Notes: generated from the sequence alone by a model not told the origin. A stretch of 64,000 nucleotides of DNA from Candidatus Aminicenantes bacterium (GCA_026393895.1 JAPKZG010000035.1:607-64606); one strand, 5' to 3'. Positions 2,337-55,587 are shown, counted from the first letter of the stretch. Translations and numbers: made by a program.

Positions 2337-2509
2337 GGACTGTATATCTCCCGTCGACGAGCGGAGCGACGCAGACTCCCGGCTCGTCCCGTCGGAAAAC
2401 AGCATACCGAAGAGATCCGTGACACGAAATACCCTGAACCGGTGATTCCCAGGGTGATTATAGGTGCCCCGGCCTAACCTTTCAAGGGGAGAGGAGTTTT
2501 TAAAGCCAA

Positions 2510-2539
2510 TTGACTTAGGCGCGCGGCGGGGAATATATT
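2510..2539 (+). promoter_or_regulatory. Putative sigma70 promoter of the SBBP gene
   Basis: TTGACT-N18-TATATT; GGAGG RBS before ATG 2608. Confidence 0.4.
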
Positions 2540-2607
2540 TTATGCCAGCGGGATTTATCCCGTATGATCAGAAAAGGATCCATCGCCAGAAAGCGGAGGC
2601 TCTATTG

Positions 2608-4971
2608 ATGCGCATTCTCAAATTCATTTTCGCAGCCATTTTCCTCTGCTCCCCGGCTTTCTTCGCGGCTTCGGATGTCCTCAGGCCGCAGGATGTGAAT
2701 CAAGAGGCTCCGGATAATGTGCCGGTGGAGGTCACCTACGATTCGAGAGGGGATCATGATTCTCGACGTCCCCTGGCGATCAGCCTGACACTGAGTTGGA
2801 ACACTTTTCTTGGAGGAATAAGCGCGGACATGATCAGTGGGATTGCCGTGGATCCGCTCGGCAACATATATGTGGCCGGCGAAAGCGCTATGCCCTGGGG
2901 CTCGCCGATTCGCGCCCACTCTGATCGAATGGACGCCTTTGTCGCGAAATTGAACGCCAACGGCAATCTGTTGTGGAACACGTTTCTGGGAGGGACCCCA
3001 ACCGACTGGGGCAGAGACATCGCCGTGGATCAATTCGGGAACGTCTATGTTGCGGGCTATAGTGATGGGACTTGGGGTTCGCCGGTCCGCGCCTTCTCCG
3101 GGGATAATGATGATGTCTTTGTCGCCAAACTCAATACCTACGGCATGCTGCAGTGGAACACCTTTTTAGGAGGGACGGATAAGGACGTGGGCTACGGCCT
3201 CGCCGTGGATACGATCGGAAACATCTATGTGTCGGGCGATAGCTGGGCGAGTTGGGGCTCGCCGATTCGAGCTTTCTCCGGAAATGACGATGCCTTTGTC
3301 GCAAAATTGGACGCCTCCGGAAATCTGTCATGGAACACCTTTTTAGGAGGGACGGATAAGGACGTGGGCTACGGCCTCGCCGTGGATACGATCGGAAACG
3401 TCTATGTGACGGGTAATAGCTGGGCGACTTGGGGCTCGCCGATCAGACCCATCACCGGTCCGGAGATAGCTTTTATCGCGAAATTGAATACTCGCGGAGT
3501 TCTGCAGTGGAATACCTTTCTGGGAGGAGGCCGGGGCGAGGGCATCGCCATTGATTCAATCGGGAACGTCTATGTGACGGGCTATAGCATTGCGACCTGG
3601 GGCTCGCCGGTTCGTTCCTACTCTGGTGGATGGGATGCCTTTGTCGCGAAATTGGATTCATACGGAAACCTGGGGTGGAATACCTTTCTGGGAGGGCTTG
3701 GTTATGAGGAGGGAATCGGCGTCGTCGTGAATTCGATCGGGAACATTTATATGACGGGTATAGGCGAACAGACCTGGGGCTCGCCGATTCGTCCCCCCTT
3801 CGGCGGGGCCGATGGCCTTGTCGCGAAATTAGATGCCGGCGGCAATCTACGGTGGAACACCTTTCTAGGAGGGACGGGTTATGACGAGGGCAAAGACATC
3901 GCCGTGGATTCGGTCGGGAACATCTATGTCGCGGGCGATAGCGGTGCGACCTGGGGCACGCCGATCCGCGCCTTCGCCGGCTTAGATGATGGTTTTGTGG
4001 CGAAGATCAAAGAAAGGTGCTCTCTGACGATTACGTCCGCTCTCCATGGCACGACGAATCCTGCTCCCGGGACATACTTTTATGATGCGAACAGCACAGC
4101 CTCTGTTTCGGCAATAGCGGACGGCGGATATGTCCTTGACAAATGGACGGGCGACGTGCCGGCCGGACAGGAGACCTCGGCGACGATCTCCATCCTCATG
4201 GACGCCGGAAAATCGATCCGGGCGAACTTCAAAGCAGGGTACTCTCTGACGATTGCCTCCGGCCCCCACGGGACGACGAATCCCGCGCCCGGAACTTATT
4301 CCTATAATACGGGAAGCACGGCCTCCGTTTCGGCGATCTCGGACAGCGGATATGTCTTCGATCGATGGACGGGCGACGTGCCGGCCGGACAGGAGACTTC
4401 GGCGACGGTCTCCATCCTCATGGACGCCGGAAAATCGATCCGGGCGAACTTCAAAGTAGGATACTCTCTGACGATTGCCTCCGGCCTCCACGGGACGACG
4501 AATCCGGCGCCGGGAATCTATTCCTACGGCGCGGGAAGCACGGCGTCCGTTTCGGCGATCTCGGACGGCGGTTATGCCTTGGATAAGTGGACGGGCGATG
4601 TGCCGGCCGGACAGGAGACTTCGGCGACGGTCTCCATCCTCATGAACGCCAATAAATCGATCCAGGCAAGCTTCAGGGCCGTTAATCCGCCGTCCAACCT
4701 GACTGCTGTCCGGTTGACGAACCGTTCGGTGACCCAAACCGAGTACATCGTCGACCTGACTTGGGAGTCCAACCCGGACAATGCCGGACTGAGCATCGCG
4801 GCCTACCGTGTTTATCGAAAAGAGGGAGATTCCTGGATCAAGATTGCCGACCTTTCATCGGATGCACTGAGCTACCGCGTCCGAAACGTCCCCGAAGCGG
4901 AGCAGACGTTCGGCGTCACCTCGGTCACCGACAGCGGCGCGGAAAGCGCCAAAACCCCGGTCGTTAAATAG
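2608..4971 (+). CDS. Secreted SBBP beta-propeller repeat protein with three InlB B-repeat-like domains and a C-terminal FN3-like domain
   Basis: Signal peptide MRILKFIFAAIF. About seven repeats of WNTFLGG...IAVD..GN(I/V)YV.G....WG.P.R...DAFVAKL. Three 74-aa repeats. C-terminal PPSNLTA...LTWESNP...YRVYR. Confidence 0.85.
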   Translation: MRILKFIFAAIFLCSPAFFAASDVLRPQDVNQEAPDNVPVEVTYDSRGDHDSRRPLAISLTLSWNTFLGGISADMISGIAVDPLGNIYVAGESAMPWGSPIRAHSDRMDAFVAKLNANGNLLWNTFLGGTPTDWGRDIAVDQFGNVYVAGYSDGTWGSPVRAFSGDNDDVFVAKLNTYGMLQWNTFLGGTDKDVGYGLAVDTIGNIYVSGDSWASWGSPIRAFSGNDDAFVAKLDASGNLSWNTFLGGTDKDVGYGLAVDTIGNVYVTGNSWATWGSPIRPITGPEIAFIAKLNTRGVLQWNTFLGGGRGEGIAIDSIGNVYVTGYSIATWGSPVRSYSGGWDAFVAKLDSYGNLGWNTFLGGLGYEEGIGVVVNSIGNIYMTGIGEQTWGSPIRPPFGGADGLVAKLDAGGNLRWNTFLGGTGYDEGKDIAVDSVGNIYVAGDSGATWGTPIRAFAGLDDGFVAKIKERCSLTITSALHGTTNPAPGTYFYDANSTASVSAIADGGYVLDKWTGDVPAGQETSATISILMDAGKSIRANFKAGYSLTIASGPHGTTNPAPGTYSYNTGSTASVSAISDSGYVFDRWTGDVPAGQETSATVSILMDAGKSIRANFKVGYSLTIASGLHGTTNPAPGIYSYGAGSTASVSAISDGGYALDKWTGDVPAGQETSATVSILMNANKSIQASFRAVNPPSNLTAVRLTNRSVTQTEYIVDLTWESNPDNAGLSIAAYRVYRKEGDSWIKIADLSSDALSYRVRNVPEAEQTFGVTSVTDSGAESAKTPVVK
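4018..4683 (+). repeat. Three tandem 222-bp intragenic repeats (B-repeat-like domains)
   Basis: Units start at 4018, 4240 and 4462; long identical runs such as GGACGGGCGACGTGCCGGCCGGACAGGAGAC. Confidence 0.9.
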
Positions 4972-26089: not shown

Positions 26090-28396
26090 ATGACCGCCGC
26101 GCGACAATCGATTCGGCAAGACATCAACCTGATGGAATATTGGGAGATCGTCTGGAAACGAAAGACGCTCGTTCTTTCCACCCTGGGCGCTTGTCTGGCC
26201 CTGGTCGCGGTCCTGTCGTTCACCCAGACCCGTCTTTACACGGCGACGGCTCAGATCCTGATCGAAGATCAGGGGTCGAGCAAATTCAACCTCCAGGAAT
26301 ACCTCAACGCCCCGACGAACACGACCGACGACTTCCTGGGAACGTATTTCAACACGCAGCTGCGGATCATCCAAAGCCGCAGTTTGGCGGAGCGGGTCGC
26401 GAAAAAGATGAATCTCGGCTCCCGGGCCGAATTCCGGTCCGAGTTGGAAAAGGACCGGACGATGCTCGAGATGGCCAAGTATATCGTCACCCTCCGCTGG
26501 CTTCGGCCGAAAAGCAAGACGCCGGATACGGCCGGGGAGATCCCGACGGGCGCCGAAGCCGAAACCATATATGCCGGCCTGTTGCTGAGGAGATTGTCCG
26601 TCTACCCGGTGCCGGAGACCCGGCTCGTCGACGTGAGTTATGTCTCTCCCAACTCCCGGTTCTCGGCCGATGTCGTCAACACCCTGGTCCAGGAGTATAT
26701 CGACTATTCCATCGAGTCGCGCTCCGAGGCGACCCAGCAGACCTCGGATTTCCTCACGGAAACGATCGCCCAGCTCCGGCAGGACCTCGATTCCAAGGAG
26801 CGTCAGCTCCAACGCTATTCCGGGGAGAAAAAAATCCTGCCGCTTTCCGATAAGGATTCAAACACCGTGTCCCAATACGCCTCCACGGCCAGCGCCTATT
26901 CGAGCGCCCAGGTCGCCCGGATCGCCGCCCAGGCCAAGTACCAGGAACTCCAAAAACTTCGGGTCGACACCCTTCCGCAAAACGTCAGCGACCCGACGAT
27001 CCAGGTGTTGCGGACGAATTATTATCAGGCGAAATCCGAATACGAGGAAAAGATCGCGACGACGTATACGCCCAGCCATCCGGAAATGATTCAGCTCAGG
27101 GCTAAAGTCGATACCTTGGAATCTCAGCTGAAAACGGAGATCAAAAAAGCCGTCGACCTGGCTTATTCCGAATATTCCCAGGCCCTGGGCAACGAAAACC
27201 GGCTGAGGGACATGCTGGACAGCAAACGGACGGAAGTCACCCAACAGAACAATGACTCTCTGTTCTACGCCGGCCTGAACACCGACGTTGAAAGCCTCCG
27301 GGAGCTGATTTCCAACCTCACCGCCCAGCAGAAAACGACCCAGGTCTCGACCATGTTGAGCGGCCTGAAAACGAGCAACATCAAAATCGTCGACCGGGCC
27401 CTCGTCCCCGACAGCCCCTCTTCGCCGAACATCAAGCGCAACTTCATCGTCGCTTTTCTTTTCGGGCTCATGCTGGGCGTCGGTCTGGCCTTTGCGGCCC
27501 ATTTCCTGGACAACACGATTAAAAATCCGGAGGATCTGGACAAGCTGACCGGCCTTCCCTCGTTGGGCCTGATTCCTCACTTTTCGCCCAATGATTCCGG
27601 CGGCAAAGGGGTATACGCCTCACCCTACGGAGACTCCGCCGCCCAGAACCCGGAGGCGACCAAGGTCTCGGAAATCGAACTCATCAATCACCTGTTCCCG
27701 AAAATTTCGATTGCCGAGGACTACCGGAACGTCCGGACGTCGATTCTCTTTTCCCGGGTCGACAGCGACCAACGGGTGATCGCCTTCACCAGCACCCAAC
27801 CCCAGGAGGGCAAGTCGGCGACCATCTCGAACATCGCCATCTCGTTCGCCCAGATGGGCGAACGGGTGCTGGCGATCGACGCCGACCTGCGCAAGCCCCG
27901 GCTTCACAAGATTTTCCAGGTTCGAAACACCGTCGGCTTGAGCGACGTCCTGACCGGCCGGGTCGATCTCGAGGAGGCCGTCCAGAAAACACCGGTCGCC
28001 CATTTTTCTCTCCTGCCGAGCGGCCCGCATCCGCCCAATCCGGCCGAGCTGCTGAATTCCAAGAAAATGAAGGCGCTGCTGGCCGTCGTTCGCGATCGTT
28101 ACGAGATCGTCCTCATCGACCTTCCGCCGGTCCTGGCCGTCGTCGATCCGGTGATTGTGGCGGCCCTGGCCGACATGACGATCATTATTTTGAAAACCGG
28201 CAAAACGACCCGGAAGCCGCTTCTGCGGGCGATCGATCAACTCCGCAAGGCCAAAGCCCGGATCGCCGGCGTGATCTTCAACGACGCCGAAACCAAGAAA
28301 AGCACGTTCATGACGCCGTACTTCCAGTACGAATACTACCAGGATCCGAGCGTGGACGAGGCGGCCCTCCAGAAAAAGGCCGAAAAGAAAGACTGA
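26090..28396 (+). CDS. wzc: Polysaccharide co-polymerase / tyrosine autokinase
   Basis: Two TM segments flanking coiled coil; EDYRNVRTSI, Walker A PQEGKS, IDADLRKP, IDLPP, Tyr cluster PYFQYEYY. Confidence 0.93.
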   Translation: MTAARQSIRQDINLMEYWEIVWKRKTLVLSTLGACLALVAVLSFTQTRLYTATAQILIEDQGSSKFNLQEYLNAPTNTTDDFLGTYFNTQLRIIQSRSLAERVAKKMNLGSRAEFRSELEKDRTMLEMAKYIVTLRWLRPKSKTPDTAGEIPTGAEAETIYAGLLLRRLSVYPVPETRLVDVSYVSPNSRFSADVVNTLVQEYIDYSIESRSEATQQTSDFLTETIAQLRQDLDSKERQLQRYSGEKKILPLSDKDSNTVSQYASTASAYSSAQVARIAAQAKYQELQKLRVDTLPQNVSDPTIQVLRTNYYQAKSEYEEKIATTYTPSHPEMIQLRAKVDTLESQLKTEIKKAVDLAYSEYSQALGNENRLRDMLDSKRTEVTQQNNDSLFYAGLNTDVESLRELISNLTAQQKTTQVSTMLSGLKTSNIKIVDRALVPDSPSSPNIKRNFIVAFLFGLMLGVGLAFAAHFLDNTIKNPEDLDKLTGLPSLGLIPHFSPNDSGGKGVYASPYGDSAAQNPEATKVSEIELINHLFPKISIAEDYRNVRTSILFSRVDSDQRVIAFTSTQPQEGKSATISNIAISFAQMGERVLAIDADLRKPRLHKIFQVRNTVGLSDVLTGRVDLEEAVQKTPVAHFSLLPSGPHPPNPAELLNSKKMKALLAVVRDRYEIVLIDLPPVLAVVDPVIVAALADMTIIILKTGKTTRKPLLRAIDQLRKAKARIAGVIFNDAETKKSTFMTPYFQYEYYQDPSVDEAALQKKAEKKD

Positions 28397-39749: not shown

Positions 39750-41744
39750 TCAGGCGAGGGGAGATCCTTTTTGCCCCAAGGCCGAAAAATAATTCTGAAG
39801 AGCCTGCCGGTCGGCGGAGGTGAGGTCGCGAAAGCGAATCCCAGTATGATAAAACGCCGATTGGGCCGAGGCTTTTTCGGAATGAACGACGTCGGCCCGG
39901 AAGGGGTTGGCTTTCTGGCCGAGGATGATCAACAAGTCCAGGACGCGGTCCTTGGCTATCCGCATGTCCGAGGAAATTCTCGCTCCGCCCGCGCTCATGT
40001 CGATGGTCCCGAAGACTCGATGGCCGCCGTTTTCCCGGCAGAGACATAACGTCGAGGTGAAAAAGCGGGGATCCCGGCGTTTTTCGGTGGCCGGCTTGTT
40101 GGAGACCGTGTTCAGAAGCGAGGTTTTGCTGATTACGGCCGCTTTGTCGCGGACGTAGGCGCAGACGCGGTTTTTATAGACGCGCTTGCTGTCGACGATC
40201 CCCAGGGCGGCCTGCCGTTTTCCCTTGGCCTCGGCCAGGGCCAATTCGGCCTCGGCCGTGATTTTCTTCAGGCTCAGTTTGGACGGGGCCAGCCCGATCT
40301 GTTCCGGGGGGAAGAGGGTGACCCCGAAGCTCATCGTCAAATTGCGGCGGGGTTGAAATTCCTGGTACTCGAAAAACCGGTCCTCGACCGCTTTCCGGAT
40401 CCGTTCGGTCAGCAGGGTCGCTTCCTCGATGGAATTGACGCTGCCGAGGAAGAACAGAAACTCCTCGCCGCCGTAGCGGCACAGAAGGTCGTCCTCGCGG
40501 ATGGCGGATTTCATCGTCACGGCGAGGTCGCGCAACAACCGGTTGCCGGCCTCCTGGCCGTTCCGGTCATTGTAGTGCTTGAACCAGTCGACGTCGCCCA
40601 TGACCATGGCGAATGTCCCTGTTTCCTTTCGGCGTTTGCTGAATTGTTCGACCTGTTGAATGACCTTTTCAAAAAACGGGTCCGGCCGGAGCAGGCCTGT
40701 GAGGGCGTCGTATTGGATGAGGTTCAACTTGGTCATGGCCAGGGCGATGTGCTCGGACAATCCCCGGAGGATTTGCGCGTCCTCCGCCGAGAAGACCGCC
40801 GGCGTTCCGACCTTGTTGTAGACCTCGATGACCCCGATAATCTCGGAAATGCTTTTCAAGGGAACGCAGAGGAGGCTCCGGAGAGGGGCGCTCAAACGCC
40901 GGTATCTTGAGGAAAAGCGCGGGTCGCCGGAGGCGTCGGCCAGGGCGATCTCCGTTCCGGACCGGGCGACGTTCGAGGCGAAATCCAGGGAAGGGAGGAG
41001 GGCGACATGCCGGGTGAAGTCGGAATGGGTGAGATAGGATTGGTCCCAAACCAGCGGTTTGAGATACGTCCCGAGCGTGTCGTTGTCCTCGAGAAGGTAG
41101 AGGGAAATGCTCCCGGCGCGGACGATCTCCTTGATGTCCGGAATGGTGTCGAGGAGGTTGTTGACGTCGGTGGCCGCATACAGTTTACGGAGGACGTTCT
41201 CGAATTGCTGGTTGAGCTTCTGGGTGCGAATGTAGCGGGCTTCGAGGGCGACCCGTTTTTCGAGTTCCTTGACGAGTCCCTCCGAAAGGGCGCTGCCGAC
41301 GCTTTTAATCTCAGCATAGACCTGTCGGAGTTTGTCTTCGGTGGACGCCTTGGACTTGGAGAGGGCCTCGACGTCGTTTTTCAGCCGGCCGTATTCATGG
41401 GCGATGGTCAGGACGCGTTTGGCTCGGGCCTGGTCCTCCGGTTTTCCGGTGAAGAGGAGATAATCGACGAACCGGTCGGAAGGATAGCTCCGAACGGCCT
41501 CTTTGAGACGGTCTTCCCGGTCTCCGACCAGGAGGAGACAGGGAACCTTGGCCAGGAGTTCGGGAAGAGGGGAGCGGCCGGCGGTCTCGATTTCAACGAT
41601 CGCTAGATCGAAAGAAGAAGACGATAAGAGAGAGACGGCTTTTTCGATTGTCGGGGAGGTGTAAACAATCCCCCGCTCATGAGCGAGATTGAACAAAAAC
41701 TCCCGCTCGGCAGGAGTGGAACTGAATATAAAAATTTTGCCCAC
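39750..41744 (-). CDS. Diguanylate cyclase: REC-like, coiled coil, GAF, GGDEF, PilZ
   Basis: DALTGL, GDVDWFKHYND, REDD I-site, RYGGEEF; PilZ motifs RRDPR and DMSAGG. Confidence 0.9.
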   Translation of the reverse strand: MGKIFIFSSTPAEREFLFNLAHERGIVYTSPTIEKAVSLLSSSSFDLAIVEIETAGRSPLPELLAKVPCLLLVGDREDRLKEAVRSYPSDRFVDYLLFTGKPEDQARAKRVLTIAHEYGRLKNDVEALSKSKASTEDKLRQVYAEIKSVGSALSEGLVKELEKRVALEARYIRTQKLNQQFENVLRKLYAATDVNNLLDTIPDIKEIVRAGSISLYLLEDNDTLGTYLKPLVWDQSYLTHSDFTRHVALLPSLDFASNVARSGTEIALADASGDPRFSSRYRRLSAPLRSLLCVPLKSISEIIGVIEVYNKVGTPAVFSAEDAQILRGLSEHIALAMTKLNLIQYDALTGLLRPDPFFEKVIQQVEQFSKRRKETGTFAMVMGDVDWFKHYNDRNGQEAGNRLLRDLAVTMKSAIREDDLLCRYGGEEFLFFLGSVNSIEEATLLTERIRKAVEDRFFEYQEFQPRRNLTMSFGVTLFPPEQIGLAPSKLSLKKITAEAELALAEAKGKRQAALGIVDSKRVYKNRVCAYVRDKAAVISKTSLLNTVSNKPATEKRRDPRFFTSTLCLCRENGGHRVFGTIDMSAGGARISSDMRIAKDRVLDLLIILGQKANPFRADVVHSEKASAQSAFYHTGIRFRDLTSADRQALQNYFSALGQKGSPLA

Positions 41745-43976: not shown

Positions 43977-44120
43977 GCCCGGCGCCCATCTCCAACCGTC
44001 AACGGCCGGAGACGGCCGGGGACATTTTCAGACAACTCCGATTTTCGCTTTTTTCCCCCGGGGCGAAGGCCCGTTCGTGTTTTTCTCCTTTCGGCCGTTA
44101 TATTCGCCGGTTCGTGATTC

Positions 44121-44136
44121 TGGCATGAACCCGGCA
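44121..44136 (+). promoter_or_regulatory. Possible sigma54 (-24/-12) promoter of the peptide cassette
   Basis: TGGCATG-AACC-CGGCA has GG and GC at the canonical spacing, but CG replaces TT. Confidence 0.3.
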
Positions 44137-44163
44137 TTAGATCAGGCCGAAAGGAGTCATCAC

Positions 44164-44412
44164 ATGACCGATCAAAAAAAGTCGGGTGGAACGAAGGTCG
44201 TCGCCTTCATCCTGACGGCGGCGATCCTGGGCGGGGTGTTCGCGGGGAGCGGCCTGGCGCTGCCGAAGGGCATCTGCGAAACGGCCCTTGAGAGATGCAT
44301 GGTGAATGCGGCGGCGGGATTGTTCGGCGAGCTCTTGGGAATCGTTATCACGGTTTCCTCGTGTCTGGCCGGGTACGATTTTTGCCGCAAGTACGTCCTC
44401 CCGCCGAGGTGA
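44164..44412 (+). CDS. Secreted Cys-rich peptide 1 (82 aa, twin CX6C)
   Basis: AAGGAG RBS; signal-like N-terminus; core GICETALERCM...SCLAGYDFCRKYVLPPR. Confidence 0.75.
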   Translation: MTDQKKSGGTKVVAFILTAAILGGVFAGSGLALPKGICETALERCMVNAAAGLFGELLGIVITVSSCLAGYDFCRKYVLPPR

Positions 44413-44416
44413 TTCG

Positions 44417-44629
44417 ATGAAAATTTCCGTTCGAATCATTTTCCGAAGCGCGACGATTCTCCTCCTTCTGGTTCTGCTCGCGAGCGCCGGCGTCCTCGAA
44501 GCGGGCATTTGCACGGACGCGTTTAAGCGATGCATGCTCGACCCTATCAACCAGGTGACTCTGACAGGGGGGTTGTATTGCCTGAACGGATACTACTTCT
44601 GTCTTAAGTACATCGAGCCGCCGAAGTGA
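44417..44629 (+). CDS. Secreted Cys-rich peptide 2 (70 aa, twin CX6C)
   Basis: GAGGTG RBS; signal peptide to VLEA; core GICTDAFKRCM...YCLNGYYFCLKYIEPPK; paralog of peptide 1. Confidence 0.78.
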   Translation: MKISVRIIFRSATILLLLVLLASAGVLEAGICTDAFKRCMLDPINQVTLTGGLYCLNGYYFCLKYIEPPK

Positions 44630-44637
44630 TCCGTCCG

Positions 44638-44684
44638 TCCGGGGGAGGAGGGGAGCGACCCCCCCCTCCCCCCGGAATTTTTTT
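44638..44684 (+). terminator. GC-rich hairpin plus T tract between the peptides and the propeller gene
   Basis: TCCGGGGGAGG...CCTCCCCCCGGA followed by ATTTTTTT. Confidence 0.65.
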
Positions 44685-44740
44685 GAGTGGAAATGAAAAA
44701 AAAGGAACGTTGGAACGTCTTTCCAAACAGGAGGACACCC

Positions 44741-45691
44741 ATGAAGATCCGTCGGGATTTTGTTTTCTTAGTCCTGTTCGCGGTGGCGATGTGCGCCGCT
44801 TGGGGAGATTCTTTGGCGGCCCGAATCAAGCTCGAAGAGCTTTCGACGATCGGCGGTCCGGAAACGGACGCGCTGTTCCTTTGGACGGCTATTTCCGTCG
44901 ACCCGGAGGACAACGTGTTTTTCTCCGACGCACTGGACTGTTCCATCAAGAAGTTCGGCCCGGACGGCGTCCTGTTGAAGAAGGCCGGCCGCAAGGGCCA
45001 GGGGCCCGGCGAGTTTGAAAAACCCGCCGGGGTGGCCGTGATCGGCGACCAAGTCTACGCCTGGGACTTGTTTGGGCGTGCCCTTCAGGTCTTTGACCGG
45101 AACCTCGTCTATCGGGAGACGCTTTTGATGCCGGGAACCGTGGACGGCCTCGCCGGCTTTCCCGGCGGGCGAGTTGCGGCCTGTATCCGTCCGTCTTACA
45201 CCCAAGCCAAGGTTGTCGTGTTTTCCCCGGACGGAACACCGGTCCGGGAATTCGCCCTCTCCGATCCGAAGGATCCGACGCTGTTCGGCACGGTCAGCTT
45301 CGCGGTCGATCCTTCGGGAGAATCCTATTTCGGCTATCTGTTCCGCGATCTGGTCGAGAAACGGAGCGCCGCCGGAGAACGGATCTGGGCCCGGACGGCG
45401 ATAGGGGCGGGACCGAGCGCCGTGAACGACGTTCAGGGATTCAAAGTCCCGTCGGAGACGTGTATTTTGAGTCTGGCCCGGGACGGTCAAGGCCGTGTCT
45501 TCATATTGGGCGGAACGAAGGCGGTTCATCAAGGCCGGGATGTCTTTGTCTTTCGCCCCGACGGATCGGTCCTGGCTTCGCTGGTCCTGCCGGAACCGAG
45601 TCATACCTTGTATTTTGACCACCGGGACCGCCTATACGTTTCCGCCGACGGGGGCGTCACCATGAAAAAATACCGGGTGACGTTTGAATAG
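44741..45691 (+). CDS. Exported 6-bladed beta-propeller (NHL-like) protein
   Basis: GGAGG RBS; signal peptide; ISVDPEDNVFFSD, GRKGQGPGEFEKP.GVAV.GDQVYAWD, FAVDPSGESY, ARDGQGRVFI. Confidence 0.8.
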   Translation: MKIRRDFVFLVLFAVAMCAAWGDSLAARIKLEELSTIGGPETDALFLWTAISVDPEDNVFFSDALDCSIKKFGPDGVLLKKAGRKGQGPGEFEKPAGVAVIGDQVYAWDLFGRALQVFDRNLVYRETLLMPGTVDGLAGFPGGRVAACIRPSYTQAKVVVFSPDGTPVREFALSDPKDPTLFGTVSFAVDPSGESYFGYLFRDLVEKRSAAGERIWARTAIGAGPSAVNDVQGFKVPSETCILSLARDGQGRVFILGGTKAVHQGRDVFVFRPDGSVLASLVLPEPSHTLYFDHRDRLYVSADGGVTMKKYRVTFE

Positions 45692-45710
45692 GCATTCCCA
45701 GGCCCTTAAG

Positions 45711-46232
45711 ATGAGGCATCCTTCGATTGTTCTCCTAATCGCGATTTTTGCGTCGATACTTGCCTCGCCCCCCGTTGCCTCCTTTCATGCTTCCGGCGGA
45801 AGGGGCGAAGACGGCCGTCCCGTCTTCGAACGTTTCGCGCTTGTCTTGATCGATGCCGACGGGCTGGCCTGTTCTCCCTGCCTCGCGTCCCTTCTGGACT
45901 TTTGCCGGGCTGTTCCCCGGGACGTCCAGGAGGAACGGATCGTCGGCGTTCTCACATTTCGGGACGGGACCGAACCCGATCCCCGGCGGGCTCGGATCGC
46001 CCGGACGAGATGGAACGGATACAGCCGGGCCAACGACATTTGGTTTCCGGTCACCGTCGATGAAGCTCACGCGTTCAACAGCTTGAGCGAAGAGGGCACG
46101 ACGATTCTCCTGTTCGATCCTTCGACGGGAAACCTGAAGCGATGGACCGCCCCGTTCCGCCCCGGCGTCTTGCAGGAAATGACCGATTTTCTCACAACGC
46201 TGAAACCCGATATAATGGAAGCTCACCCATGA
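45711..46232 (+). CDS. Exported thioredoxin/redoxin-fold-like protein with CxxC
   Basis: Signal-like N-terminus; ALVLID...ACSPCLASL pattern (strand, CxxC, helix); TTILLFD. Start may instead be TTG 45684. Confidence 0.55.
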   Translation: MRHPSIVLLIAIFASILASPPVASFHASGGRGEDGRPVFERFALVLIDADGLACSPCLASLLDFCRAVPRDVQEERIVGVLTFRDGTEPDPRRARIARTRWNGYSRANDIWFPVTVDEAHAFNSLSEEGTTILLFDPSTGNLKRWTAPFRPGVLQEMTDFLTTLKPDIMEAHP

Positions 46233-47590
46233 TCGCAAAAGAACGCCTTTGTTTTCTCAATTCCCGGGAATCCGCCGCCGGCGATTATGTCCTTTATTGG
46301 ATGCAGGCGGCCCAACGGGCCGAAGCCAATCCGGCCCTGCAATATGCCGTCCAACTCGCCAACGAGAAACGCCGCCCCTGCCTGGCGTTTTTCGGCTTGA
46401 CCGGCGGCTTCCCCGAGGCGAATGCCCGGCACATGGCTTTTATGCTCGAAGGCCTGCGGGAAACGCAACGGACCCTGGCCGACCGCGGCATCAAGCTCGT
46501 GGTGAGGCCGGTCTCGCCGGAAAAGGGCGTCGTCGAAATGGCGCGGGCGGCTTCCCTGGTCGTGACGGACCGGGGATATCTTCGGATTCAAAAGTCGTGG
46601 CGGGCCCGGGCTGCGGCCGATTTGTCCTGTTCCTTGATTCAGGTGGAAACCGAGGCAGTCGTTCCCGTGGAAACGGCTTCGATCAAAGAGGAATATGCGG
46701 CGGCCACCCTCCGGCCGAAACTACGTAAAATCCTGGCTTCTTATCTCTCCGTCCCCCCCGAACGCAAACCTTTGCGCGACTCCCTGGGTTGGCAGGGAGA
46801 TTCGTTCGACCTGGAAAACATCGACGATATTCTCGCCGGCCTGAAGATCGACCGCAGCGTCGGCCCGTCGCCTTTTTATCGCGGCGGAACGGACGAAGCC
46901 AAAAAGCGCTTCCGCGTCTTCCTTCGGGAGCGGATCGGTCATTTCAGCGACCTCCGCAACAATCCCTCGCTCGATTATTTGTCTCATCTTAGCCCGTATC
47001 TTCATTTTGGCCAGATCTCTCCCGTGTGGCTGGCGATGAAAGCGGAGGCGACCGGGAGTCCCGGCCGGGAAGCGTTTCTCGAGGAACTGATCGTCCGCCG
47101 GGAATTGGCGATGAATTTCGTCCATTACAACGACCGTTACGATTCTCTGGAATCGCTTCCGGCTTGGGCTCGGGCAACGTTGGCCGAGCACGCCGTCGAC
47201 ATCCGGCCCGTCCTCTGCACCCGGGCGGAGCTGGAAGCGGGGAAAACGCACGATCCCTACTGGAACGCGGCCCAACGGGAAATGGCCCTGACCGGGAAGA
47301 TGCACGGATACATGAGGATGTATTGGGGAAAGAAAATCCTCGAATGGAGCGCGTCTCCCGAAGAGGCCTTCGCGACCGCCCTTTACCTGAACAACAAGTA
47401 CGAGATCGACGGCCGGGACCCCAATGGGTTCGCAGGCGTGGCCTGGTGTTTCGGCAAACACGACCGCCCCTGGGGGAAACGGCCGATCTTCGGCTCCGTG
47501 CGCTACATGAATGACAGGGGATTGCGGCGGAAATTCGACGCGGACCAGTATGTCCGCAACGTCGCCCGGCTGGAAGCGCGCGCGGATTGA
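46229..47590 (+). CDS. phr: Class II CPD photolyase
   Basis: YVLYWMQAAQRAEANPAL, SHLSPYLHFGQIS, EELIVRREL, GKMHGYMRMYWGKK, DGRDPNG, GSVRYM. Confidence 0.93.
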   Translation: MIAKERLCFLNSRESAAGDYVLYWMQAAQRAEANPALQYAVQLANEKRRPCLAFFGLTGGFPEANARHMAFMLEGLRETQRTLADRGIKLVVRPVSPEKGVVEMARAASLVVTDRGYLRIQKSWRARAAADLSCSLIQVETEAVVPVETASIKEEYAAATLRPKLRKILASYLSVPPERKPLRDSLGWQGDSFDLENIDDILAGLKIDRSVGPSPFYRGGTDEAKKRFRVFLRERIGHFSDLRNNPSLDYLSHLSPYLHFGQISPVWLAMKAEATGSPGREAFLEELIVRRELAMNFVHYNDRYDSLESLPAWARATLAEHAVDIRPVLCTRAELEAGKTHDPYWNAAQREMALTGKMHGYMRMYWGKKILEWSASPEEAFATALYLNNKYEIDGRDPNGFAGVAWCFGKHDRPWGKRPIFGSVRYMNDRGLRRKFDADQYVRNVARLEARAD

Positions 47591-54064: not shown

Positions 54065-54141
54065 GTGCCTGTAGCTCAGTTGGATAGAGCGACGGCCTCC
54101 GGAGCCGTAGGTCGCAGGTTCGAATCCTGTCAGGCACGCCA
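54065..54141 (+). tRNA. tRNA-Arg (anticodon CCG)
   Basis: Acceptor stem GTGCCTG/CAGGCAC, anticodon arm ACGGC-CTCCGGA-GCCGT, T-loop TTCGAAT, encoded CCA. Confidence 0.95.
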
Positions 54142-55247: not shown

Positions 55248-55260
55248 TAGCACCCTTGAT

Positions 55261-55333
55261 GGCCCGTTAGCTCAATTGGTAGAGCAGCGGACTCTTAATC
55301 CGCGGGTTGTAGGTTCAAGTCCTATACGGGTCA
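55261..55333 (+). tRNA. tRNA-Lys (anticodon CTT); CCA not encoded
   Basis: Acceptor stem GGCCCGT/ACGGGTC, anticodon arm GCGGA-CTCTTAA-TCCGC, T-loop TTCAAGT; followed by TCT. Confidence 0.93.
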
Positions 55334-55587
55334 TCTCCTTTTTTCCCTGAAAAGCCTGATAAATAAGGCATTTGCGCGGATTTCTTCCTCCGGTCTATTT
55401 CCGCCCGTTTTCCTTCAATTCCTGCCTATTCTCGGGAAAAGTCGACACTCCTTTAGTATAGAGTGGAAGAAATACAAGCCGTTTATGATAGCATAGGAGG
55501 AGCCTTGACAATTCTTTGTGAATAGTTGACTTCGTTTTTGTAGCTGGGATATACATAATTCAAGTGAATATTTTGCAGGAGCGAGCC

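Follow-up and report, generated by a model that had tools for sequence, protein, structure and literature searches.

That a secreted disulfide peptide may be served by a dedicated helper of the thioredoxin fold is a logic already known. In mitochondria, proteins with twin CX9C or CX3C motifs (the CHCH fold) form a helix-turn-helix with two disulfides and are oxidised by Mia40/CHCHD4 after translocation. In the plant protein SOQ1, a redox motif lies at the interface between a thioredoxin (Trx) domain and an NHL domain. Gallocin A of Streptococcus gallolyticus consists of two hairpin peptides with an intramolecular disulfide, and its activity needs BlpT, a thioredoxin-domain protein at the surface (bioRxiv 10.1101/2022.12.05.519244). 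We describe here a cassette of four genes that may be compared with these systems. It lies in a stretch of 64,000 nucleotides from a Candidatus Aminicenantes bacterium (GCA_026393895.1 JAPKZG010000035.1:607-64606), the whole of which is referred to below as the window. The cassette consists of two tandem genes for small peptides with twin C-x6-C motifs (pepA and pepB), a gene for an NHL-type beta-propeller and a gene for a CxxC protein of probable thioredoxin fold, all four products being predicted to be exported. An earlier reading of this DNA (the sequence-only reading) had taken these genes for a two-peptide antimicrobial or signalling module, with the propeller as immunity protein or receptor and the CxxC protein as foldase. 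The analysis below adds to that reading a predicted sigma-54 promoter, a strict order in which A precedes B, and a parallel between the two larger proteins and known Trx-NHL pairings.

Two peptide genes within a conserved cassette

The genes pepA and pepB are tandem paralogs separated by 4 nt, with one promoter region for both. In each product a positively charged N-terminus is followed by a hydrophobic, signal-like segment and then by a core with four Cys residues. The loop between the inner Cys residues is hydrophobic and Gly/Ala-rich in pepA; in pepB, whose signal ends in …ASAGVLEA/GIC, the loop is short and polar, with D-P. The ribosome-binding site of pepA is kept in L001, L007, L019 and L006 (alignment of the spacers; L numbers denote individual loci), and pepB is preceded by GAGGTG. 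Mechanical calling of open reading frames (ORFs) starts both peptides too far upstream, at GTG 44077 and ATG 44306, and the JGI gene calls on the ortholog L001 give identical products of 82, 70, 316 and 173 amino acids. These two ORFs are alone in the 64 kb window in joining a twin C-x6-C to C-x2-G-Y-x-F-C. The sequence-only reading had recorded the paired peptides with their ribosome-binding sites, Sec-type signals and Cys spacings (Table 1), as well as the exported propeller and the exported CxxC protein downstream, and all are present as it described them; it had also remarked that both peptides are mis-started, and the L001 calls agree with the corrected starts.

A word-indexed search for relatives of the peptides yielded 14, and an exhaustive profile search (E <= 1e-3) defined a family that forms 199 clusters when grouped at 50% identity. 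Of the 161 members retrieved, 160 retain the four-Cys pattern, with the consensus [AG][GD][VI]-C-E-x-A-[LF]-x-[RK]-C-[LM]-x-D-[AP] … [YF]-C-[LI]-x-G-Y-x-[FW]-C-x-[KR]-[YF]. Across the family the four Cys residues, A41 and G70 are invariant or almost so. Two types of loop are found: type A, of 20-23 residues (38 in one clade), is hydrophobic and Gly/Ala-rich, and type B, of 13-17 residues, is polar and starts with D-P. All members with a named source are "hypothetical protein" entries of Candidatus Aminicenantes or Aminicenantales.

The family corresponds to nothing in the libraries searched, in agreement with the sequence-only reading, which had recognised no named family. The four proteins of the window were compared with Pfam, NCBIfam and PADLOC and fell into no family, except for sub-threshold ScyF/NHL matches of the propeller; PADLOC gave no defence-system relative of any of the four. 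Neither window peptide matches an NCBIfam model, and 148 family members compared with Pfam gave scattered single matches only, with none matching PF10439 at E <= 0.01. A profile search of the PDB with the peptides returned nothing meaningful, and Foldseek with the peptide model gave no match below E = 4.9. Searches of plasmids at the DNA and protein levels found no peptide relative and only remote propellers, and thus no sign of a mobile origin for the cassette. The locus itself gave no match in scans with Rfam or for tRNA genes, and literature searches that combined Aminicenantes with bacteriocin, NHL repeat or sigma-54, or that concerned DUF5128, returned nothing relevant.

Because the ratio of nonsynonymous to synonymous substitution rates (dN/dS) is below 1 for both peptides (0.40-0.70 for pepA and 0.22-0.24 for pepB), these genes are, as judged from sequence divergence, coding and under purifying selection. 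The corresponding values are 0.26-0.31 for the propeller, 0.30 for the CxxC protein, 0.08-0.09 for the neighbouring hutU and 0.11-0.16 for the neighbouring photolyase gene, so that the entire cassette evolves faster than its housekeeping neighbours. By these measures the four-Cys pattern and dN/dS together put the observation far beyond chance. Coding on the opposite strand was considered and ruled out, since both dN/dS and conservation fit the plus-strand ORFs.

Loci were gathered from a scan of one genome per species, from a degenerate DNA pattern applied to metagenomes, which demanded G-Y-x-F-C-x-K-Y, and from look-ups of exact proteins; at least 66 distinct loci, with G+C contents of 36-64%, are represented. 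Because they were retrieved by the peptides only, linkage to other genes provides an unbiased test. The counts that follow refer to the loci listed. Both peptides are visible in 61 of 66, the remaining five being cut by contig ends. Of the 46 loci with enough downstream sequence, 45 have a propeller gene next after pepB, and in 29 of 39 the propeller gene is in turn succeeded by the CxxC gene. The order is always A, B, propeller, CxxC. By position, the peptides fall into two orthologous groups (58/61 loci for the first peptide and 60/61 for the second), which are judged from their sequences to be ancient; L103 seems to be an exception only because of the way in which its ORFs were sorted. The lengths of the two loops co-vary, an A loop of 22 residues occurring with a B loop of 14-16, one of 38 with 20 and one of 29 with 19 (Spearman rho 0.59, a figure with few independent events behind it).

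The cassette is found in two settings. The first, that of the window, contains a GGDEF gene, gltX, hutU and the photolyase gene (phr); the second contains genes for a glycosyltransferase, a DHH-phosphoesterase and a nickel superoxide dismutase. Since the cassette is intact in two unrelated contexts, the four genes travel as one unit. A functional link to hutU or to the photolyase was rejected on the same ground, and the proximity of these genes is regarded as synteny only. Across loci the divergence of the cassette tracks that of hutU, in keeping with vertical descent. The recurrent neighbours include no gene for an exporter, a regulator or a membrane immunity protein, and no conserved small membrane ORF was found in or beside the cassette. 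The module of four genes proposed in the sequence-only reading is therefore real and conserved: its suggestion that co-occurrence be checked was carried out through the peptide-based retrieval described above, the relatives keep both the Cys pattern and the linkage, and its notion of a constant scaffold with a variable loop is borne out by the family alignment.

Table 1. Positions in the window of the cassette genes and of the elements associated with them
Feature	Position	Strand	Description
Sigma-54-type promoter (predicted)	44121-44136	+	TGGCAT-N5-CGGCA, ~28 nt before the pepA ATG
pepA ribosome-binding site	44151-44156	+	AAGGAG, 8 nt before the ATG; read from the sequence
pepA	44164-44412	+	82-amino-acid precursor, A type; Sec-type signal, then C-x6-C-x21-C-x6-C core
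pepB	44417-44629	+	70-amino-acid precursor, B type; Sec-type signal, then C-x6-C-x15-C-x6-C core
GC-rich stem-loop and T-run	44634-44685	+	Between pepB and the propeller gene; predicted intrinsic terminator or attenuator
Propeller gene	44741-45691	+	316 amino acids; six-bladed NHL-type beta-propeller, predicted to be exported, N-terminal signal; AGGAGG upstream
CxxC protein gene	45711-46232	+	173 amino acids; probable thioredoxin-fold protein, predicted to be exported, C54-S-P-C57 at 45870-45881

Predicted structures of the four products

Of 164 peptides, 161 have a signal-like N-terminus of the Sec type, in which an n-region of positive charge precedes 12 or more hydrophobic residues; N-termini that resemble signals are also found in 38 of 39 propellers and in 25 of 25 CxxC proteins. 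The AlphaFold model of pepA, based on an alignment of 80 sequences, consists of a signal helix (residues 9-27) and two further helices (37-51 and 57-78), with a mean predicted local distance difference test (pLDDT) score of 67. C38 and C45 lie on the first of these two helices and C67 and C74 on the second. The model is thus a helix-turn-helix and speaks for the helical hairpin suggested in the sequence-only reading. On each helix the paired Cys residues are seven residues, or one heptad, apart and lie on the same face, which they share with A41 and G70. Because the Cys residues at i and i+7 and a small residue share one face, an antiparallel hairpin is expected, and the predicted connectivity would staple it through C38-C74 and C45-C67 (C1-C4 and C2-C3). 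The conserved Y71, F/W73 and Y/F77 lie off this face and, in the model, could form a docking surface.

The predicted mature peptides contain about 47 (A) and about 40 (B) amino acids and are hydrophobic, with a median net charge of 0. GxxxG occurs in 50% of A loops, where shuffling gives 27 ± 4%, and in 5% of B loops. Enrichment of GxxxG and of small-xxx-small zippers is confined to the A loops. Three other identities for the peptides were considered and rejected. They are not lipoproteins, for they carry no lipobox ([LVI][ASTVI][GAS]C): in most of them the first Cys is preceded by V or I, neither of which a lipobox permits at that place. A four-Cys metal site was set aside because Cys residues at i and i+7 on a helix are too distant for one ion, and no His is present. 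Nor are they precursors of ribosomally synthesised and post-translationally modified peptides, given the Sec signal at the N-terminus and the lack of a maturase nearby.

The propeller family profile matches TRIM-NHL structures in the PDB with E = 8e-35, over 3-4 matched stretches, and also matches the PAL domain of PAM, PknD, SOQ1 (E = 0.003) and NHLRC2 (E = 0.25). DUF5128 is matched by 35 of 39 family members and Pfam NHL by 17 of 39. The window propeller on its own falls under the Pfam thresholds, and its nearest NCBIfam model, ScyF, is matched far under the cut-off of that model. The protein stops directly after blade 6. The clade without the CxxC gene has, no more than a few kb from the cassette, another NHL/DUF5128 propeller gene, whose product is a more distant paralog and bears a signal of the lipoprotein type (L015:3677-4861 (-), L020:9180-10421, L084:5613-6776 and L108:5167-6351).

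Among 25 diverse members of the CxxC family the CxxC motif is invariant and P113, the presumed cis-Pro of an F-P-[IV] loop, is nearly so. The inner dipeptide varies, with SP, PA, FN, PI, MT, AP and others represented. An AlphaFold model based on a shallow alignment shows a thioredoxin-like beta-alpha-beta…beta-beta-alpha topology at low confidence (mean pLDDT 52). Nearly all of the top Foldseek matches to this model have the Trx fold, none of them being significant (best E = 0.046), and the profile matches are weak (StoA, E = 0.023; Redoxin, 2 of 25 members). In L036 (864-2486, +) a single ORF of 540 amino acids joins the propeller to the CxxC domain by a linker that is rich in Pro and Ser and takes the place of the signal peptide. 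This looks like a natural gene fusion, with an assembly error possible, and on the strength of it we argue that the propeller and the CxxC protein work together. These features make it plausible that the CxxC protein is a dedicated thiol-disulfide helper.

Promoter, hairpin and neighbouring genes

An alignment of the hutU-pepA spacer from five relatives reveals one conserved block, TGGCAYGAAYCCGGCA, just before the ribosome-binding site, the rest being divergent. This block is a predicted -24/-12 promoter of the sigma-54 type, whose general pattern is TGGCAC-N5-TTGCW. In the window it reads TGGCATGAACCCGGCA, with the -24 GG at 44122-44123 and the -12 GC at 44134-44135, and it is the only strict match in 64 kb, where 0.12 would be expected by chance. 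The element, mostly in the canonical form TGGCAY-N5-TTGCW, stands at a nearly fixed distance before pepA in 37 of the 55 distinct loci listed, compared with 0.47 in shuffles. No gene for an enhancer-binding activator was found within the 64 kb window. The cassette-bearing contig L090 encodes an FHA-GAF-Sigma54_activat protein, and such activators are therefore present in at least one cassette-bearing organism. A short palindromic element, CCGTCAACGG, is located at 43990-44010, some 110-120 nt upstream of the -24 element. Each of the five relatives in the alignment conserves it, and it might either bind an activator or belong to the final part of hutU.

The hairpin that the sequence-only reading had noticed after pepB is confirmed. 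Its stem-loop (44634-44676) has a predicted energy of -33 kcal/mol (z = -2.1), and a hairpin with a T-run occupies the same position, with a different sequence, in L001, L007, L091, L137 and L019, all of the high-GC clade. In AT-rich clades the pepB-propeller spacer may shrink to 21 nt.

Several features of the surroundings may be recorded. In the window the CxxC stop codon and the start codon of the photolyase gene (46229-47590, +) overlap as ATGA. At least 13 loci have the photolyase gene after the cassette, with which it may be co-transcribed in the clade of the window. A divergent gene upstream of hutU (39750-41744, -), conserved in at least 19 cassette loci, encodes a GAF-GGDEF-PilZ protein, an unusual mixture in one chain of a cyclic di-GMP synthase domain and a cyclic di-GMP receptor domain. 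In the clade with the 38-residue A loop a nickel superoxide dismutase (Sod_Ni, E = 4e-29; N-terminal hook HCQIPCGIY) is encoded near the cassette, at L015:5728-6189 (-) and also in L020, L054, L072, L084 and L108. The presence of this enzyme is of note since the organisms are presumed to be anaerobes. L019 (9815-10420), the single exception to propeller linkage among the 46 loci, contains hutU, a sigma-54-like promoter, pepA, pepB and the hairpin, and there a convergent SBBP-like repeat gene replaces the propeller and CxxC genes. On a 1.1 Mb contig of a long-read metagenome-assembled genome (L011:8001-10105), pepA, pepB and the propeller and CxxC genes contain several frameshifts, which are more likely to be homopolymer sequencing errors than marks of pseudogenes. 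Elsewhere in the window are genes for an 835-amino-acid protein with SBBP propeller repeats and InlB-type B-repeats (2464-4971, +) and for a Wzz/GNVR tyrosine-kinase-type chain-length regulator (26090-28396, +), the latter of which suggests an exopolysaccharide locus. The only Rfam/ARAGORN matches in the window are tRNA-Arg(CCG) (54065-54141, +) and tRNA-Lys(CTT) (55260-55335, +).

Explanations for the cassette and its relation to known systems

We tentatively propose, as a reading that could well prove wrong in part or in whole, that the cassette is a sigma-54-controlled envelope module specific to Aminicenantes, in which a split Trx-NHL machine folds a 1:1 pair of stapled hairpins that acts at the membrane. 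A signal would activate an enhancer-binding protein encoded elsewhere, which would then turn on the promoter before pepA. In the high-GC clade the hairpin after pepB would give rise to a short and abundant pepA-pepB transcript, with read-through supplying less of the propeller and the CxxC protein. All four products would be exported by Sec, and each mature peptide, once its signal had been cleaved, would form an antiparallel alpha-helical hairpin with two inter-helix disulfides (C1-C4 and C2-C3), the small residues A41 and G70 permitting close packing of the helices. The NHL propeller would serve as a binding platform that holds the unfolded peptides, while the CxxC protein would catalyse the formation or the proofreading of their disulfides; together the two would represent, in split form, the Trx-NHL pairing seen in SOQ1 and NHLRC2. 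Folded A and B would then act as a 1:1 pair at the membrane; an obligate pair is suggested because two ancient groups keep one order and their loop lengths co-vary. The glycine-zipper, hydrophobic tip of A would insert into the bilayer, with B as the shorter, polar partner. A membrane-active tip is proposed because zippers are enriched in A loops and the peptides are neutral and hydrophobic. The site of action would be the envelope of the producer itself, where the peptides might form an inducible, membrane-associated complex, and not the membrane of a competitor. We place it there because the cassette is single and vertically inherited, with exactly two peptides that are uncharged, and has no exporter or immunity gene.

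Several observations weigh against this proposal. Named records are few, and it is from these that the restriction to Aminicenantes is deduced. The dN/dS of pepA (0.4-0.7) denotes faster evolution than would be expected for a housekeeping part of the envelope. No canonical -24/-12 element is present in 18 of the 55 loci listed, about 7 of which show one-base variants by eye, and the hairpin is not evident in AT-rich clades and is thus seen in one clade. An adjacent CxxC gene is missing from 10 of 39 loci, mainly in the clade with the 38-residue A loop, and L019 retains the peptides only, so that the helpers are not always linked. Finally, the confidence of AlphaFold is moderate for pepA and low for the CxxC protein (pLDDT 67 and 52).

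The same features may be read in other ways. If A and B were released as a two-peptide, bacteriocin-like toxin, they would permeabilise competitors, the CxxC protein would form their disulfides and the propeller would be an immunity protein or an export chaperone. The dependence of the two disulfide-containing hairpin peptides of gallocin A on BlpT is a precedent for such an arrangement, and the enrichment in A loops of GxxxG, a hallmark of class IIb bacteriocins, the fast evolution of pepA and of the loops, and a putatively sigma-54-inducible expression would all be in keeping with it, as would the promoter-proximal peptide transcript with its terminator, which resembles the structural-gene units of peptide antibiotics. 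However, GxxxG is not enriched in B (5% of B loops), the mature peptides have a median net charge of 0, and PF10439 is matched by 0 of 148 members. The leaders are Sec signals, with no double-glycine leader, and no C39/ABC exporter, outer-membrane export component, quorum-sensing gene or small membrane immunity gene recurs nearby. To our knowledge Aminicenantes have two membranes, so that delivery by Sec would reach the periplasm only, and we know of no propeller-type immunity protein. Bacteriocin loci are usually patchy and variable in copy number, whereas here a single cassette is present per locus, the number of its peptides is exactly two, and synteny is maintained throughout a deep lineage. 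We consider a released toxin unlikely. The antimicrobial or signalling activity envisaged in the sequence-only reading finds no support, and the Sec leaders, the synteny, the neutral charge and the missing exporter and immunity genes all argue against a classical bacteriocin locus; nor was support found for the propeller as an immunity protein or receptor. Its foldase idea fares better and appears plausible, given the invariant CxxC, the near-invariant cis-Pro, the fusion in L036 and, by analogy, the precedent of gallocin A and BlpT.

The cassette might instead centre functionally on the propeller, which would be an enzyme or a binding protein of the periplasm, with A and B as its small, disulfide-rich subunits or membrane anchors and the CxxC protein as their assembly factor. 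Methylamine dehydrogenase, with its Cys-rich small subunit, propeller large subunit and thioredoxin-like MauD, offers an analogy. The peptides are linked to the propeller in 45 of 46 loci, all partners are apparently exported to one compartment, and Y71, F/W73 and Y/F77 could provide the docking surface, with the hydrophobic tip of A as a possible membrane anchor. Against such a complex, the high-GC clade has a predicted terminator that separates pepB from the propeller gene, which implies that the stoichiometry is unequal, and L019 has peptides without a propeller. In addition, no catalytic motif was identified in the propeller, whose closest relatives are binding-type NHL domains, and no cofactor-forming residues or maturases were found nearby. 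A complex centred on the propeller seems to us distinctly unlikely. It is more improbable still that the cassette is a redox relay or sensor, in which the Trx-NHL pair would use the thiol/disulfide state of the twin-Cx6C peptides to regulate a process in the envelope. The natural fusion backs a coupling of Trx and NHL, SOQ1, which acts on the lipocalin LCNP, shows that catalytic action on a specific small partner is possible, and the inner dipeptide of the CxxC motif varies across the family, all of which would accord with a relay. Nevertheless, Cys residues one heptad apart on paired helices are probably structural staples, as is typical, and not switches; the cassette has neither a DsbD/CcdA-type electron source nor a SOQ1-like C-terminal domain, and the CxxC gene does not adjoin the cassette in 10 of 39 loci.

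The peptide family, its Cys signature, the pairing with an NHL protein and the predicted sigma-54 control are not described in the libraries or papers searched. That the cassette represents a new kind of peptide system, in which sigma-54-induced, Sec-exported, heterodimeric twin-Cx6C alpha-hairpins are matured by a split Trx-NHL pair and directed to the membrane, across Aminicenantes, is an attractive but doubtful possibility. If it were true, the membrane-directed activity of the system would have no described counterpart, and the peptides might be new two-peptide antimicrobials for two-membrane anaerobes, or might self-assemble into a hydrophobin- or chaplin-like envelope or surface layer. 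The family has its own signature, a signal peptide followed by C-x2-A-x3-C … C-x2-G-Y-x-[FW]-C-x-[KR]-[YF], and two further "hypothetical" proteins are tied to it in a testable way. The substrates of Trx-NHL proteins are largely unknown, including those of human NHLRC2, which is mutated in FINCA disease, and the cassette would offer a bacterial, genetically split model of this pairing, with the likely substrates encoded next door. Should the peptides be membrane-active, they would provide a compact, disulfide-stapled hairpin scaffold with a naturally variable loop for peptide engineering and would be relevant to the ecology of an abundant, uncultured sediment lineage. The conserved, predicted promoter is a handle for finding the inducing signal.

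Among described systems gallocin A appears to be the closest functional parallel. As in gallocin A and other class IIb bacteriocins, two co-encoded peptides of some 40-60 residues, with few charges, are modelled as disulfide-held alpha-hairpins, and GxxxG is found here in one of the two; a dedicated extracytoplasmic protein with a thioredoxin domain, a predicted one in the cassette, is also common to both systems. The leaders of gallocin A, however, are of the double-glycine type and are cut by an ABC transporter, whereas the cassette peptides have Sec signals, and the single disulfide of gallocin contrasts with the two that are predicted here from the twin C-x6-C. The cassette has an NHL propeller and no hairpin immunity peptide, a sigma-54-type promoter, and a synteny that extends across a candidate phylum. 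It shares with class IIb loci the adjacency of two peptide genes; a C39 leader and transporter, an adjacent immunity gene and a match to the family model are all missing. Because leader type, exporter, immunity gene and family model all fail to agree, the cassette is not a class IIb bacteriocin locus.

For the helpers, the Trx-NHL pairing of SOQ1 and NHLRC2 seems to be the closest architectural parallel. These proteins place a CxxC thioredoxin-fold domain and a six-bladed NHL propeller outside the cytoplasm, as is predicted for the products of the cassette. In the cassette, however, the genes are separate, and in the sole fusion the order is reversed, with NHL before Trx. The C-terminal, beta-stranded, DsbD-like domain of SOQ1 is absent, no homology of the Trx domain can be recognised from its sequence, and two dedicated miniproteins are co-encoded that neither SOQ1 nor NHLRC2 possesses. 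Because the genes are split, the fusion order is reversed and the C-terminal domain is missing, the cassette is not an ortholog of SOQ1 or NHLRC2. The CxxC protein resembles TlpA, ResA and StoA in its N-terminal signal or anchor, in the predicted location of the CxxC at the start of helix 1 and in the F-P-[IV] proline; it differs from them in lying below all curated family thresholds and in being linked, and once fused, to a propeller. The mitochondrial CHCH proteins, for their part, have x9 or x3 spacings where the cassette peptides have C-x6-C, and the latter are bacterial and Sec-exported, with a signal predicted to be cleavable and a long hydrophobic loop. No sequence relationship between the two was detected, and the likeness is a structural analogy only.

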